This document shows positions 4,412-12,031 of a stretch of 12,031 bases of DNA, in pieces. The DNA lies in assembly GCA_027310185.1 (NCBI GenBank), contig DAIDBH010000012.1, positions 1 through 12,031 on the forward strand, given 5' to 3'. A model generated the notes under the pieces. That model was not told the origin of the DNA and did no database searches. It saw nothing but the letters and a program-made list of their open reading frames with translations. Origin of the DNA: Thermoplasmatales archaeon. Lineage in GTDB: Archaea > Thermoplasmatota > Thermoplasmata > Thermoplasmatales > Thermoplasmataceae. A program made the position numbers and the translations under genes. Within the stretch, counting starts at the first letter, position 1, and the number at the start of each line of letters is the position of its first letter.

Positions 4412-5418
4412 GTGGAAATACCTGTGAGCAATAAGAACCATAAAGTGAAGAATGTGGTCAGTGGGAAAACTAACCATAACCAAACGGAAAAGTTCGATTG
4501 TTTCAAATATGACAGGAGAGCCCTGAAGAAGGATAGCTGGATCTTGAGCAAGCACATGAACGGCCGGGAATTCAAAACTCTCCAGGAAGCAAATGATTTT
4601 TACGCCCAGGCAAAGAACTCTGGTATGGTAGAGAACTTTCAGCCGGATGAGCCAGAAGATCAGGCTCAATTTCTTGCCTATGAAGCATTCAGCAGGAAGG
4701 GCATGGAACGCCGGAATATGGCAAAACATGCTCTTGAAATATCTGATAATTGCACTGATGCCTATGTAATTCTGTTGAGATGGAGAAGGAAAACAACAGG
4801 AAGATTGAGCTCTATGGCAAGGGCGTCAATGCTGCTGAGAGGATTCTTGGAAAGGAAATATTCCAGAAAGAAAAAGGGAACTTCTGGAAAATCATCGAAA
4901 CAAGGCCATATATGAGGGCACAGGAGGGTCTTGCTGTTGCATTATGGAATTCCGGAAAATTGGACAGTGCCCGGGCAATATATGAAAAGTTACTTGATCT
5001 TTATCTTGATGATAATCAGGGCAATTGATATTCACTCCTTTTCCTGTACATGTATAATAACAACCCGGCAATAGCAAAAAAACTCCTTAGCCAGTATGAT
5101 GAGGATAGTGCTGAGTGGAATTATAACAGGGCCCTGTTTCTATACATGACGGCTGGTGTAACTATGGAGTCCAAGAGTGCTCTTAGAAAGGCGTTTAAGT
5201 CCAACAGGTTTGTGCCGTTGATACTCCTTGGAAATGTTAATATTCCTCAGAACAGTAATTACATAACACCTGGTGAGCCTGATAAGGCAAACTCATACGC
5301 CCGGTTATCAGGTTCACTCTGGTCGAGAAACAGGGGAACGGTGGAGTGGCTTGTTACTGAATTTGATGAATACATGAAGGGTTGGGAGAAAACACCTGAA
5401 AAATTATTTGGCCGGTAA
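4412..5418 (+). pseudogene. TPR/ST7-like helical repeat protein (family often annotated SEC-C/TPR), broken by a frameshift and an in-frame stop
   Basis: Three track ORFs join into one recognisable protein: AQFLAYEAF...ALEISDNCTDAYVIL / ELYGKGVNAAERILG...FWKIIETRPYMRA...DDNQGN*YSLL / EWNYNRAL...SNRFVPLIL. There is a 1-nt deficit near 4774 and a TGA at 5026-5028 where Arg is expected. The start is uncertain. Confidence 0.85.
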
Positions 5419-5504
5419 TCTCCCAGTTATGAAACTTCAACAAGAAACTGTGTTTATATAGAGGCTTATTGAACTGTGCTTTTTCAATTATAAGGCTGAT
5501 ATAT

Positions 5505-5535
5505 GAAAAAATTAAATACAGGTAAGCATACTTAC
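5505..5535 (+). promoter_or_regulatory. BRE/TATA promoter with operator-like inverted repeat
   Basis: gaaaaaa followed by TTAAATA (5512-5518, 24-30 nt before the ATG at 5542), then GTAAG-cata-CTTAC at 5522-5535. Confidence 0.55.
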
Positions 5536-5541
5536 TGACAA

Positions 5542-5826
5542 ATGGTTAAAACAAAGATAACCGTTTCCGTGGATAGGCAGGTAGTGATTAATGCAAAACT
5601 TGCTTTGTTAAAGAAAAGAAGAGCACTCAGTGACTACATTGAAAATTCCCTCAGATCCTTATCAGTTACGGAGTTCCTGAACGATATATGCACAGAATTA
5701 AACTTGGACTGCGGATACACAAGCAGTGAGGATGTAGAAAGAATAAGACCAGACCTGGCAGGAAAAATATACTCAGAGAATATTCTAAGAGAAATGCGAA
5801 ATGAAAGAAACTCGCGCCTATCTTGA
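5542..5826 (+). CDS. Ribbon-helix-helix VapB-type antitoxin
   Basis: N-terminal KTKITVSVD...ALSDYIENSL fits the RHH pattern. The C-terminal SENILREMRNER overlaps the start of a PIN ORF, as in archaeal vapBC pairs. Confidence 0.75.
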   Translation: MVKTKITVSVDRQVVINAKLALLKKRRALSDYIENSLRSLSVTEFLNDICTELNLDCGYTSSEDVERIRPDLAGKIYSENILREMRNERNSRLS

Positions 5827-5899
5827 TACCAGCATCCTTGTCAAGAAGTTTGTAAATATTGCTATACAACAAATATATAATATAATAATATCCTTGTGA
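5801..5899 (+). pseudogene. vapC: Truncated VapC/PIN toxin
   Basis: ATG 5801 gives MKETRAYLDTSILVKKFV, the PIN N-terminal motif. It then runs into AT-rich sequence and stops at TGA 5897-5899 (32 aa). Not in the ORF track. Confidence 0.75.
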
Positions 5900-6081
5900 A
5901 CAAACAATAGTTATATAACCCTTTATGGAAGAATCTCCTAAGACGTGTGTCTTAATATGATATGATAAACATTTAATTTTAATAATTCTTTATAGTTCTT
6001 ATGTTAAAAAATGTGTTTAATAATATTATATTTAGGAATTACATGAACAAACATTTTTATACAACTTTGCAATAGGTCTAT

Positions 6082-6537
6082 ATGGATAATGTCCTTATAT
6101 TTACAAAAGATGGAATAAAGGTTTTAGAAATAATTAAGAACCCACTAATGCCTGAGAGGCAAGAAGAATCAATAGTTCCATATGATAAAATAACACAGTA
6201 TAATCCCTTAGATATACACGTGATAGGAATAGTTCCAAAGGTAGAAGGGGGAGTTTTGAGCCAGATTGAATTGAAGCTTGGAAAAGAAGACGAATCTTCT
6301 TACCATGATACCTTGTGGTTTAAAAAGCAAATTCAGGATTTTCTAAGTGATGGAAAAGAGTGGAAAAAAGAGAGTATTTATGCCAAGCTTCAACCTGAAT
6401 TTAACATCGGAGATCATAAGAAACTCAAAGGTGGAACAACTAGAGGATACTCGAACTTAAGTGGAGCCTTGGATCTTCTGAAGAAAGAAGGTGTTTTAGA
6501 AAACCCTAGAAAAGGGATATGGAGGTTGAGGAAATGA
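6082..6537 (+). CDS. Hypothetical protein with C-terminal Mrr_N-like winged-helix domain
   Basis: FLSDGKEW...ALDLLKKEGVLENPRKGIWRL resembles the Mrr N-terminal domain (PF14338). No nuclease motif is visible. Confidence 0.7.
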   Translation: MDNVLIFTKDGIKVLEIIKNPLMPERQEESIVPYDKITQYNPLDIHVIGIVPKVEGGVLSQIELKLGKEDESSYHDTLWFKKQIQDFLSDGKEWKKESIYAKLQPEFNIGDHKKLKGGTTRGYSNLSGALDLLKKEGVLENPRKGIWRLRK

Positions 6538-6628
6538 CTAAGATGACTGCATTTTATAAATTTTTATTAATCGAAGTGTATTGCATAGGTAACGTTTTTC
6601 AATTTAAAGATTAGGGGAAAGGTATACA

Positions 6629-6889
6629 TTGACCTACATAGTTAAATCTACGGAAACTTTCGAAAAAGAATGCTCTAAAAAACATAAGGATAAGAAAGAA
6701 TGGTTACAACAAATGGTGGAGAAATTGGAAAAAGACCCACAAATAGGAAAACCTTTGAGAGGAAAACTTCACGGGCTATGGCAGATACGAATTGGTCCAT
6801 TCAGGATATGGTACGAAATAAATGAAGAACTTAAAATAGTAACACTCAGAGCAATCCTGCACAAAGATGATGCAAAAAAATATTATTAG
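6629..6889 (+). CDS. relE: RelE/ParE family toxin
   Basis: 86 aa with a TTG start. DPQIGKPLRGKLHGLWQIRIGPFRIWYEI...ILHKDDA is a typical RelE pattern. Confidence 0.88.
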   Translation: MTYIVKSTETFEKECSKKHKDKKEWLQQMVEKLEKDPQIGKPLRGKLHGLWQIRIGPFRIWYEINEELKIVTLRAILHKDDAKKYY

Positions 6890-7062
6890 AGATCTTTCAG
6901 GAAATCCTTGACATTCCTGACTTTCCCTTTCTTTATGTCAATCTCACTTCCTTCTATTTGTTCCATTACATATTCATTTTCAAGAGTTTCAACTGTAGCT
7001 TCAAGACTTTCCAGGTCAGATTTTGGAATGCTTACAAGTCTAGATTGCTTAGTAGCGGTCAT
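6886..7062 (-). CDS. 58-aa antitoxin-like protein (Phd/YefM C-terminal-like)
   Basis: Hand translation: MTATKQSRLVSIPKSDLESLEATVETLENEYVMEQIEGSEIDIKKGKVRNVKDFLKDL*. It has an acidic core and the ESLxxTxExL...I..S..DI..GKV pattern. Its stop overlaps the relE stop. It is absent from the ORF track, probably because of its short length. Confidence 0.8.
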   Translation of the reverse strand: MTATKQSRLVSIPKSDLESLEATVETLENEYVMEQIEGSEIDIKKGKVRNVKDFLKDL

Positions 7063-7251
7063 ATTATTACTATATACATTCCCATTTTATTATCTTTTGG
7101 TATGATACTAGTTAGGACCTGTACAATACAATTGGCAAAATAGGGTTTCACTGGGCTCTTTCCTTTTATATGAGAAGAAATTGGTGTAGCTTTAATACGT
7201 AAAAATTTAAGATGGAATTGTTAGTCAATGTACAAGGAGAATGTATTAATA

Positions 7252-8154
7252 TCAATCTCTGCCCTTTATTTCTCCATAAAGACGCAATGCTGCAAGACTT
7301 GTCATCCACCTACTGTTTAACATGATCCCTGGAAGTTCACCCTGCTTGATTCTGAGTGCCAGGTATTTTGCCGAATAATCCTTTTGAAAAGATCCTATGG
7401 CTTCGTTTAATGTCAATAACCTATCTTCCTCAGATCCAGCCATATCAAGGGCAAAAAGAAGTGATCCTGCCATATTTATCTTAAGGAACTCTGTCAGCTT
7501 TTCCACTCCATCAGTATGTGCAGACTCAAGGGTATCCAGGTATACATTCCTATCATGTGGAAGAATGTGTACTAGTGGCCAGTTGTGATTGAGGAAATGC
7601 ATGTTAAGCAGTAATCTGCCGACCCTCCCATTTCCATCTGAGAATGGATGGATTGATTCAAAGCCAAAGTGCATCTGAGCAGCCTGGGAGAAAACATCTT
7701 CACGCTTCATTTCCATTTCCTCATACTGCTTCTCCCATACCTGGAGAAGAGTGAGAAGTTTTTCGACTCTTGGCGGGGAATGCTTCGACCCAGATATTTT
7801 AACATTAACCATTCTCCATCTCCCAGCGTCTAGAAGTATCCCGCGAAATATCGTCTCATGCAAATTCAATGCACTTGCCATATTGACCTCAAATAGTTTT
7901 CCTCTTATTACCTCCTCTAAAGCTGCACGAAGCTGAACAGTTTCCATTACATCTTTTATGAGTCTGTTTGGGACGGTCATCCCAGTTTCTATTACTTTTG
8001 TAACTTCGTTCAGTGTTAGCGTATTCCCCTCTATTGAATTGGTTCCCCAGGTGTTCAAGATGATTGACTCCACAAGTGTCTTTTCCGGTAAATTGCGTAA
8101 CGATCCTCGATCCAACAGCCTCTCCCTTAGACTATTTAATATGTTTCTATCCAT
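7252..8154 (-). CDS. Fic family protein (class II) with C-terminal HTH
   Basis: Canonical HPFSDGNGRVGR motif and N-terminal inhibitory motif TNSIEGN. The C-terminal LLTLNEA...YLALRIKQGELPG...RWMTS looks like an excisionase/HTH_17 domain. Confidence 0.93.
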   Translation of the reverse strand: MDRNILNSLRERLLDRGSLRNLPEKTLVESIILNTWGTNSIEGNTLTLNEVTKVIETGMTVPNRLIKDVMETVQLRAALEEVIRGKLFEVNMASALNLHETIFRGILLDAGRWRMVNVKISGSKHSPPRVEKLLTLLQVWEKQYEEMEMKREDVFSQAAQMHFGFESIHPFSDGNGRVGRLLLNMHFLNHNWPLVHILPHDRNVYLDTLESAHTDGVEKLTEFLKINMAGSLLFALDMAGSEEDRLLTLNEAIGSFQKDYSAKYLALRIKQGELPGIMLNSRWMTSLAALRLYGEIKGRD

Positions 8155-8524
8155 ATATCATAAGATAGTACATATTTATTATATAAACATATATGGAATT
8201 ATTAGCATTATCTTAAAGATCTATACTGTCAATAATGCATCGAATTTTCATCAGAATTAAACAGAACTTCATGCTTTAAAAAATTCCTTTAATGGAATGT
8301 CATGGTATAGATTTACCATAACGTCCAAATATTTCCTTTCCCTTCCTGTGATAAAAATTAACTACTCTGGGATTGAATCGAATCAAACCCTTGATATTCG
8401 AATGAAGGAAGATACCCCTACCTGAGTATTGTCCTCCAGATGTAAAAGTTTCCTTAAACTGCAAATAGAAACGAAAATTGATTTCCTGTTGAAGTCCATA
8501 TTGATGGAGATAAGAATAGAACTA

Positions 8525-11343: not shown

Positions 11344-12031
11344 GAGGATTTCTAACAACCTCTCATTAAACACCGTAACATTTATTCATGAAACACGCAT
11401 GTTACAGTATGAGTGACCTCTTCGATGAAGTTCTCAGGGAAAAATACAGACAGTATTTTGTAAATGATCCACTTGCATTTGCGAAGGAATCAATAGACTG
11501 GGATGCCTTTCCTCCACTTCTTAATGATCTGTATCATAATGATACAGATAAGGGAGGAAGGCCAAACATACCTGTAAAAACCATGGTGAAGGTTCTATAC
11601 CTTCAGAGCCTGTACAATCTTGCAGATGAACAGGCGGAGAAGGAGATCCATGACAGGATCTCGTTCATGAACTTTCTTGATTATCCTGATCAGTATCCCG
11701 ATGCAAGAACCATATGGTTATTCAGGGAAAGATTATCGAGGACAGGAAGAGATCGTATAATATGGAATGAGTTGCAGAGACAGCTTGAATCCAAGGGCAT
11801 CAGGGTTAAGAAGGGATCTGCACAGGATGCAACATTCATCACATCAGATCCTGGACATGTTAAGCATGATGAACCAAGATCAGATGGAAGGACAAGAAGA
11901 TCAAAAGATGGATCATTCACCAAAAAGAACAATAAGACATTCTTCGGATACAAGGGACATACAATTGTTGATGACAACATTCCTGTTCCAGTAATAAGAT
12001 CCTATGCTGTATCAACAGCAAAGGATCATGA
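11344..12031 (+). mobile_element. IS5-family insertion sequence (left part)
   Basis: Putative left inverted repeat GAGGATTTCTAACAACCTC at 11344-11362. The boundary is supported by the homologous remnant ending at 3420. The transposase follows, and the right end is outside the window. Confidence 0.85.
11409..12031 (+). CDS. IS5-family DDE transposase (3' end outside window)
   Basis: Open from ATG 11409 to the window end: MSDLFDEVLREKY...IDWDAF...GGRPN...LQSLYNLADEQAE...DRISFMNFL...PDARTIWLFRERL...QDATFI...FGYKGH...STAKDH. Confidence 0.95.
   Translation, partial: MSDLFDEVLREKYRQYFVNDPLAFAKESIDWDAFPPLLNDLYHNDTDKGGRPNIPVKTMVKVLYLQSLYNLADEQAEKEIHDRISFMNFLDYPDQYPDARTIWLFRERLSRTGRDRIIWNELQRQLESKGIRVKKGSAQDATFITSDPGHVKHDEPRSDGRTRRSKDGSFTKKNNKTFFGYKGHTIVDDNIPVPVIRSYAVSTAKDH

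Follow-up and report, generated by a model that had tools for sequence, protein, structure and literature searches.

Contig DAIDBH010000012.1 of a Thermoplasmatales archaeon (GenBank assembly GCA_027310185.1; archaeal genome of 1.88 Mb) carries a relE toxin gene and, on the opposite strand, a gene for a 58-amino-acid (aa) protein, here named AT58, and the two genes meet tail to tail (Table 1). The window analysed in this study is the entire contig of 12,031 nucleotides (nt). We propose that relE and AT58 probably constitute a working two-protein type II RelE toxin-antitoxin (TA) module whose genes face each other rather than forming an operon. Both genes are genuine and strongly constrained by purifying selection, and their convergent layout is not a one-off rearrangement. 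The proteins themselves are of known kinds; the architecture is the unusual part of the system.

The stop codons of the two genes interlock, relE ending with TAG at 6887–6889 and AT58 with TAA at 6886–6888 of the minus strand. The initial annotation of this DNA, made from the sequence alone, had described exactly such a 4-nt overlap between relE and a minus-strand open reading frame (ORF), and this geometry recurred in all 28 loci measured, with overlaps of 4 nt in 22 and of 7 nt in 6. The overlap leaves no room for an intergenic terminator; therefore each transcript must end within the partner gene. As the genes are convergent and their stops overlap, the mRNA 3′ ends are complementary and the polymerases converge. 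For relE, TTG is the only standard start codon, because the frame is closed on the 5′ side by a TAA at 6605–6607 and contains no ATG or GTG alternative. This weak start had been interpreted as a design feature of the system, which the comparison did not bear out: 27 of 29 listed loci start with ATG (in one of them, L050, one codon 5′ of the coordinate used), one starts with GTG, and TTG occurs in the window copy only.

The convergent layout was found far beyond the window. The same genome contains a second relE/AT58 pair on another contig (76% and 78% identical), in which relE starts with ATG and the stops again overlap by 4 nt. Our survey comprised 41 species-representative loci and two samples of 401 genomes each. 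A search of the 401 genomes of the class sample with AT58 detected the gene in 23 of them. Seventeen loci of this sample were close (at least 65% identity); next to AT58, relE was full-length and convergent in seven, broken and convergent in six and absent in two, the remaining two being cut by contig ends, each with a convergent relE remnant. An eighth full-length convergent relE lies alongside AT58 on G162:C7, as derived from coordinates, and each full-length RelE of this clade in the class sample thus has AT58 alongside (8 places).

The 41 loci were obtained with the RelE profile from a collection in which each prokaryote species is represented by one genome; 37 of them were assessable and 4 were cut by contig ends. 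In 35 of the 37, an AT58-family ORF was convergent with relE and abutted it. These 35 loci belong to Thermoplasmata/Thermoplasmatales, Micrarchaeota, Aenigmatarchaeota, Nanohaloarchaea, Methanospirillaceae and further archaea; one of them lies on a 2.7-kb contig binned as a Kaiserbacteria bacterium, which at 77% identity is probably mis-binned. The two other loci were L074, in which the AT58-family ORF is convergent with RelE and a 277-aa ORF stands between them, and L073 from an actinobacterium, a canonical operon in which a full-length YefM-like antitoxin of 88 aa precedes relE in the same orientation. Consequently, none of the 36 assessable archaeal loci carried a clade RelE without a convergent AT58-family ORF (35 abutting, one distant). 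A clade RelE that is always accompanied by AT58 fits the prediction of a working toxin-antidote relation. Apparently, the non-operonic pairing of RelE with a minimal antitoxin proposed initially describes a whole lineage, and homologous pairs are not always co-directional within this RelE clade. In IMG/VR, the RelE profile found one weak match (35% over 39 residues) and no close relative.

Other RelE families of the class sample served as a control. Sharing 31–45% identity with the RelE described here, all 16 were encoded in ordinary operons in which an antitoxin of 61–97 aa lies upstream on the same strand and abuts relE. The C-terminal part of 8 of these 16 antitoxins was matched by the AT58 hidden Markov model, behind 35–45 extra residues resembling a ribbon-helix-helix (RHH) or AbrB domain, which therefore show directly what AT58 is without. 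In a tree of 30 RelE proteins, a single branch (ultrafast bootstrap 96, Shimodaira-Hasegawa-like approximate likelihood ratio test 94) separated 23 proteins with convergent layout from 7 with canonical layout; this tree was unrooted and came with long-branch warnings. One such canonical operon was observed in the genome of the window itself (L005:1468–2015, contig C4), where a 97-aa AbrB-headed antitoxin is followed by an 86-aa RelE with a 7-nt overlap. This RelE is 42% identical to that of the window, and the C-terminus of its antitoxin resembles the AT58 module.

RelE of the window exceeded the cut-offs of both the Pfam family ParE_toxin (PF05016; 36.7 bits, cut-off 23) and TIGR02385 RelE_StbE (30.2 bits, cut-off 27.9). 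A profile built from 33 relatives and searched against solved structures found Rv2866 as the best match (3g5o_B, E 2.3e-8) and also RelE of entry 9g12 (9g12_A, E 5.4e-8). The window protein keeps all 16 residues that are invariant in the family. Among the 33 members, K41, R59, K79 and Y86 never vary and H78 hardly does; all five occur in the window protein. From its family membership, this RelE is expected to cleave mRNA in a ribosome-dependent manner.

AT58 had been described as unannotated and as apparently lacking the N-terminal DNA-binding domain of type II antitoxins. The former holds only in part: the 228 database relatives (E≤0.001) are mostly called hypothetical; among the matches listed, 7 of 120 carry the JGI name of a PHD/YefM-family antitoxin. 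The latter was corroborated by the control antitoxins and by a profile built from 34 relatives, which in a search against solved structures aligned to residues 32–76 of the 83 residues of YefM (6l8e_A, E 0.0019) and to residues 38–81 of the 89 residues of RelB (9g12_C, E 0.0048), and weakly matched Rv2865 (3g5o, E 0.1). Since the alignment starts at residue 32–41 and only 0–13 residues precede the aligned strand in AT58, the protein is without the first 31–40 residues of the Phd/YefM fold. The matches of RelE and AT58 thus point to chains of two common entries, 9g12 and, weakly on the antitoxin side, 3g5o. The C-terminal toxin-binding helix and tail of Phd/YefM are present in AT58, as indicated by the YefM and RelB matches and by the predicted interface described below. 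AT58 matched no family in Pfam or NCBIfam. An AlphaFold2 model (predicted local distance difference test, pLDDT, 91.3) shows a coil at residues 1–13 and helices at 14–28, 30–44 and 51–56. No convincing fused or longer form was found among proteins of 117–2000 aa, lengths of 103–116 aa lying outside this search; three ORFs of 141–166 aa were rejected as long forms, as they lie on contigs of 502–890 nt and are probably miscalled.

Selection was determined from 21 pairwise comparisons of seven intact relE/AT58 pairs. Across these comparisons, the proportion of nonsynonymous differences was 0.01–0.26 versus 0.41–1.0 for synonymous differences. The ratio of the respective substitution rates (dN/dS, omega) was 0.02–0.05 for relE where dS was computable and 0.02–0.10 for AT58 where dS was unsaturated. 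As AT58 is conserved and its dN/dS is low, the possibility that it is a chance ORF beside relE was rejected. Proteins named after Thermoplasma acidophilum occur in both the RelE and the AT58 families, and relatives of both are named Thermoplasmatales by their sources.

A model of the AT58-RelE complex, a check suggested in the initial annotation, supports binding of the two proteins. Three runs gave ipSAE values of 0.75, 0.82 and 0.82, while the best of three controls reached 0.28; contacts common to the runs amounted to at least 96%, and the partners had pLDDT values of at least 83. In the calibration of this score, 58 of 80 solved complexes attained the mark, as did 2 of 110 mismatched pairs. 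The modelled interface comprises residues 15–58 of AT58 and residues 4–16, 41–52, 59–61 and 72–82 of RelE.

The two genes differ in what precedes them. AT-rich elements were confirmed at the positions initially assigned, namely TTTAAA on the plus strand at 6603–6608 and 'aaaagataataaaa' on the minus strand at 7085–7098. The latter lies within a 28-nt block, at about −44 to −17 of AT58, which is nearly invariant in nine Thermoplasmatales loci, with a mean identity of 0.83 versus 0.61 at third codon positions of AT58 (45 locus pairs). The window copy agrees with the Thermoplasmatales block at 22 of 28 positions when shifted by 2 nt, by manual count from the printed sequences; without shift and gaps, the identity of the window to the others was 0.38 in the block, 0.48 at AT58 third codon positions and 0.24 in the distal flank. 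DPANN loci have a TATA octamer, perfect or nearly so, at a similar distance from the AT58 start. We consider the block a putative promoter, and because its TATA-like run lies about 28–30 nt before the ATG, a leaderless or near-leaderless mRNA is predicted.

The 60 nt upstream of relE were, in contrast, not conserved (ungapped identity 0.32). TATA-like sites with at most two mismatches, centred at −36 to −22, were present in front of AT58 in 17 of 25 loci and in front of relE in 10 of 25. In at least seven Thermoplasmatales loci, relE lies 0–48 nt behind a large co-directional gene, which contains ResIII, helicase-C or endonuclease domains wherever Pfam matches anything; in several DPANN loci the gene upstream of relE is divergently oriented, and relE has a TATA-like element nearby. 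Thus, of the separate promoters postulated initially, that of AT58 is represented by its own conserved TATA-like block, while relE shows no conserved promoter of its own and often follows closely behind a large gene. In the window, relE is preceded by a 151-aa ORF with an Mrr_N-like winged helix, a neighbour which, with its 91-nt gap to relE, is shared by L044 alone of the loci examined. It may be co-transcribed with relE and is no conserved part of the module; as it accompanies relE only in these two loci, it was rejected as the real antitoxin.

RNA from one metatranscriptome study, represented by two runs (X1 and X2) of one sample, covered the region at 100% identity. Two further runs, X3 and X4, contributed no contigs. 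A 694-nt RNA contig (6345–7038) contained the end of the 151-aa ORF, the 91-nt spacer, the entire relE, the junction and 153 nt of AT58, and a contig of the second run spanned 6143–6722. Because contigs bridge the spacer at 6538–6628 (X1 record 2 and X2 record 6), read-through from the upstream ORF is an alternative source of relE mRNA. The contigs are compatible with such read-through and with expression of the pair and prove neither; their depth is unfit for ranking genes. Positions 5400–6121, 7039–7117 and 8142–8340 had no contig cover in X1 and X2, and since missing cover proves nothing, transcript boundaries were not drawn. A T7 run situated 5 nt past the AT58 stop, within the last relE codons, may act as an archaeal oligo-T terminator. 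No conserved oligo-T terminator was found after the AT58 stop in 28 loci, comparable runs being present only in L010 (T6) and L050 (T5); the T7 run is specific to the window copy, and a terminator of this kind was discarded as a family feature.

These results can be combined into a probable mechanism. AT58 would be a toxin-neutralising module made up of a short strand and a helix followed by the toxin-binding helix and tail, without the N-terminal dimerisation and DNA-binding part. Its residues 15–58 would wrap RelE and block mRNA cleavage at the ribosome. AT58 would be expressed as a leaderless mRNA from its own conserved TATA promoter, while relE, having no conserved promoter, would be fed by weak local TATA-like elements or by upstream read-through, presumably from a large helicase or endonuclease defence gene in many Thermoplasmatales and from the 151-aa winged-helix ORF in the window, where the TTG start may further dampen translation. 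Polymerase convergence and complementarity of the mRNA 3′ ends may add mutual interference, which is speculative, and the T7 run would keep the transcript overlap short in the window copy. The arrangement may have originated by inversion of the toxin gene of an antitoxin-then-toxin operon, whereby the promoter stayed with the antitoxin and the stops came to meet.

Decay of the loci is asymmetric. A frame-by-frame check found relE disrupted, by frameshifts or stop codons, at 6 of the 17 close class-sample loci and at 6 of the 35 convergent loci from the species scan; AT58 was intact in all 17 close loci and broken in one of the 35 (L047). Such a pattern, in which relE breaks and AT58 stays intact, is expected for a toxin and its antidote. 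Together with the constant AT58-family partner of the archaeal clade RelEs, it argues for binding independently of the complex model.

Several observations weigh against a working toxin-antidote pair. The TTG start could leave relE of the window barely translated. The Pfam model Phd/YefM (PF02604) did not match AT58 at E≤1, and comparison of the AT58 model with the PDB by Foldseek gave nothing at E≤0.001. Toxicity, binding and rescue are predicted from sequence and modelling, and the complex score may mirror a memory of solved structures rather than AT58 and RelE themselves: because YefM-YoeB, Rv2865-Rv2866 and RelB-RelE have been solved, the good score of the complex indicates likeness to a known binding mode and not binding of this copy. 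The RNA contigs are unstranded and do not resolve single transcripts, and the library may contain DNA. In L047 (2264–2445, minus strand), AT58 has a nonsense codon at position 41, next to a full-length relE that contains an insertion of 2 residues; the assembly may be wrong here, the toxin may be inactive, or rescue may be provided in trans. AT58 furthermore stayed intact where relE is degraded or replaced by a small Zn-ribbon gene (L009, L015, L019, L031 and L032), and in three genomes (G231, G331 and G261; 96–99% complete) AT58 is present and no clade RelE was found at E≤0.001 with a RelE query. Since AT58 occurs intact without relE, including in three near-complete genomes, it may have a RelE-independent role.

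If that role were the principal one, AT58 would chiefly be an antitoxin of the orphan or anti-addiction kind, or else a small regulator that works with a different partner, and relE beside it a decaying passenger. The pair would have ceased to function as an addiction or stress module, and AT58 would neutralise an incoming or paralogous RelE or act together with the Zn-ribbon protein that replaces relE. The persistence of AT58 in every close locus, next to broken or absent relE, would be accounted for in this way, as would its presence in the three genomes just mentioned, the TTG start of the window relE and the syntenic slot which holds either relE (−) or a four-cysteine ORF of 54–59 aa (+). 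We nevertheless regard such a role as unlikely to be the main one, because intact relE genes are under strong purifying selection with the low omega values given above, the window RelE keeps all its invariant residues, and every assessable archaeal RelE of the clade faces an AT58-family ORF.

Still less probable is that AT58 binds DNA and autorepresses its own gene, so that only the toxin has escaped operon control. Its N-terminal RLVSIP strand would pair in an RHH-like dimer on a palindrome at its own TATA element, and the promoter block of Thermoplasmatales indeed has, directly next to the TATA, a 5+5 palindrome whose halves are 4 nt apart. Inverted repeats with loops of 29–31 nt also bracket the interval from TATA to start in the unrelated loci L044, L049, L065 and L067, and the order strand-helix-helix in AT58 is compatible with an RHH-like fold. 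The palindrome, however, is degenerate in the window copy, and among 18 loci only the inverted repeats of L065 exceeded 300 shuffles. RHH families were not matched in Pfam or NCBIfam and the best Foldseek rows were non-significant, while the modelled toxin contact uses helix 2 of AT58, which would clash with a canonical RHH core. The most improbable of these explanations replaces the protein by RNA: the AT58 transcript or relE read-through would serve as a type I-like antisense antidote, acting through pairing of the 3′ ends or through collision of polymerases. Overlapping stops do force the transcripts to overlap at their 3′ ends, and there are two precedents, namely relE2 of Mycobacterium tuberculosis, which is under antisense control and whose protein is the best solved match of the toxin (PMC9325379), and reverse promoters of a restriction-modification system which inhibit upstream convergent promoters (PMC3874152). 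The obligatory overlap is only 4–7 nt, however, and the T7 run would limit the overlap in the window copy. AT58 is homologous to the toxin-binding part of antitoxins, with an interface supported by the model. Type I systems are defined by a non-coding antisense RNA as antidote, and the convergent gene here encodes a protein under purifying selection. We retain the two-protein module as the best explanation.

Table 1. Features of the relE/AT58 locus and of related loci. Positions refer to the window unless a locus is given.
Feature	Position	Strand	Remarks
relE	6629..6889	+	RelE/ParE-superfamily toxin gene, 86 aa, TTG start
AT58 (name given here)	6886..7062	−	minimal antitoxin, 58 aa, ATG start, homologous to the C-terminal half of Phd/YefM/RelB-type antitoxins
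Stop-codon overlap relE/AT58, 4 nt	6886..6889	both	from ORF coordinates
AT58 promoter block, candidate	7077..7104	−	contains the TATA-like run at 7085–7098, centred about 30 nt 5′ of ATG
TTTAAA, possible TATA element of relE	6603..6608	+	about 23 nt 5′ of TTG; 1-mismatch site centred at −22.5
AGGT, Shine-Dalgarno-like site of relE	6620–6623	+	
T7 run, possible archaeal oligo-T terminator of AT58	6874..6880	−	5 nt past the AT58 stop, within the last relE codons
Upstream 151-aa ORF	6082..6537	+	Mrr_N-like winged helix; Pfam Mrr_N E 3.9e-5, below cut-off
Zinc-ribbon ORFs	L009:1279–1458, L015:1279–1458, L019:1247–1453, L031:1692–1856, L032:1301–1465	− (L031: +)	
Element of about 390 nt	L002:1085–1470		own genome, contig C3, about 29580–29965; also L009, L015, L019, L031, L032, L035–L038, L042

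Some related loci and neighbouring features deserve mention. The zinc-ribbon ORFs listed in Table 1 encode four-cysteine proteins of 54–68 aa and lie just 3′ of AT58 in the same direction, in the slot of relE, which is opposite there in the second copy of the window's own genome; they could represent a second kind of AT58 partner or replacement cargo. In three of the genomes concerned, the RelE query detected no RelE of the clade. Three-gene co-directional arrays were observed in L021, L022, L023 and L033, consisting of a 72-aa antitoxin, an 83–84-aa RelE of another family and an AT58-like ORF of 55–65 aa whose N-terminus is degenerate and whose C-terminal module is well kept. Directly upstream of AT58 and co-oriented with it, syntenic Thermoplasmatales loci contain a GC-rich non-coding element of about 390 nt, which is absent beside AT58 of the window. 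Most of its alignment columns are at least 90% conserved although nearby synonymous sites are near saturation. RNAalifold predicted a structure of −119 kcal/mol with 104 pairs, of which 5 are supported by compensatory changes, and with hairpins inserted in some loci only; the invariant G-U pairs speak for the AT58-sense strand. The element is a single copy, with RNase P RNA and signal recognition particle RNA located elsewhere in the genome, and no Rfam family was matched at the gathering score by the element, the window or three related loci. We consider it a candidate for a new structured RNA.

Within the window, a gene for a 300-aa Fic-domain protein (7252–8154, minus strand; Pfam Fic E 2.8e-19; active-site stretch HPFSDGNGRVGR) is co-oriented with AT58 and situated 189 nt upstream of it. 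AT58 was rejected as a separate antitoxin of this gene, as the Fic protein has an N-terminal stretch of its own, TNSIEG, that resembles the intramolecular inhibitory-helix motif, and as AT58 travels with relE and not with Fic in the other loci. A 94-aa ORF at 5542–5826 (plus strand) gave a sub-threshold match to DUF6364 (E 9.5e-5; 23.2 bits, cut-off 27.3) and begins with a strand and a helix, as small antitoxin-like proteins typically do; no toxin ORF is seen next to it. An IS5-like transposase gene (11388–12029, plus strand; DUF772, E 3.2e-19) runs off the contig end. Since it also contains the Fic gene, the TA pair, a GNAT gene and the antitoxin-like ORF without a toxin, the contig has the appearance of a variable island at which an insertion sequence interrupted the assembly.

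Compared with known systems, AT58 resembles the antitoxins of YefM-YoeB and Phd-Doc in that it aligns to the last strand of YefM, the next helix and the toxin-binding helix; it differs by the missing N-terminal residues, by not being matched by the Pfam model Phd/YefM and by being convergent instead of upstream in an operon. The canonical RelE operons of the same class share the toxin superfamily and, in half of the cases examined, the C-terminal antitoxin module, and differ by their co-directional upstream antitoxin with its extra N-terminal domain and by the low identity of their RelE. In the archaeal aRelB-aRelE systems of Pyrococcus horikoshii and Methanocaldococcus jannaschii, small antitoxins without a compact core wrap RelE, and the genes are co-directional. 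These systems were absent among the PDB matches of the AT58 and RelE profiles. The nearest published parallel that we found is relBE2 of M. tuberculosis (Rv2865-Rv2866, 3g5o), where the antisense RNA asRelE2 ('type IIb') also gives convergent transcription across relE; there, the genes are co-directional and the convergent RNA is non-coding, whereas here the convergent transcript encodes the antitoxin (PMC9325379). Convergent restriction-modification genes likewise express a poison and its antidote from facing promoters, as do type I systems with convergent promoters, and mutual interference or antisense control has been documented (PMC3874152); their proteins are unrelated to those described here, and type I systems use RNA as the antidote.

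In the prevailing, operon-centred view of type II systems, the toxin:antitoxin ratio is set by co-transcription, by autorepression through the DNA-binding domain of the antitoxin and by conditional cooperativity. With genes on opposite strands and a headless antitoxin in the whole RelE lineage, which extends over several phylum-level groups of archaea, the ratio must be set in some other way. TADB 3.0/TAfinder treats types II–VII as tandem same-strand genes and uses an operon-structure module (PMC10767807); such a tandem operon was found neither here nor in 35 of the 37 clade loci. A comparative census of type II systems from 2009 reported none for Thermoplasmatales (PMC2701414), and yet both protein families include members named after T. 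acidophilum. In the open-access literature searched, no paper was found on a type II TA pair with convergent genes for two proteins. Convergent pairs may thus be a systematic blind spot of operon-based TA surveys, and cultured carriers among the named relatives, for example T. acidophilum, make the pair testable at the bench.

One may go further and suppose that the convergent geometry itself is the control device which replaces operon autoregulation, a constitutive leaderless antitoxin promoter being set against a promoterless relE fed by read-through from the preceding gene, which is very often a restriction or helicase defence gene. We consider this extension doubtful. If it were true, RelE output would report transcription of the neighbouring gene, gated by polymerase collision and 3′ RNA pairing, and a type II module would have been rewired as a transcription-coupled back-up to defence genes. 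The convergent pairs of Thermoplasmatota and DPANN would then represent an old lineage of such modules which is invisible to operon-based TA finders.

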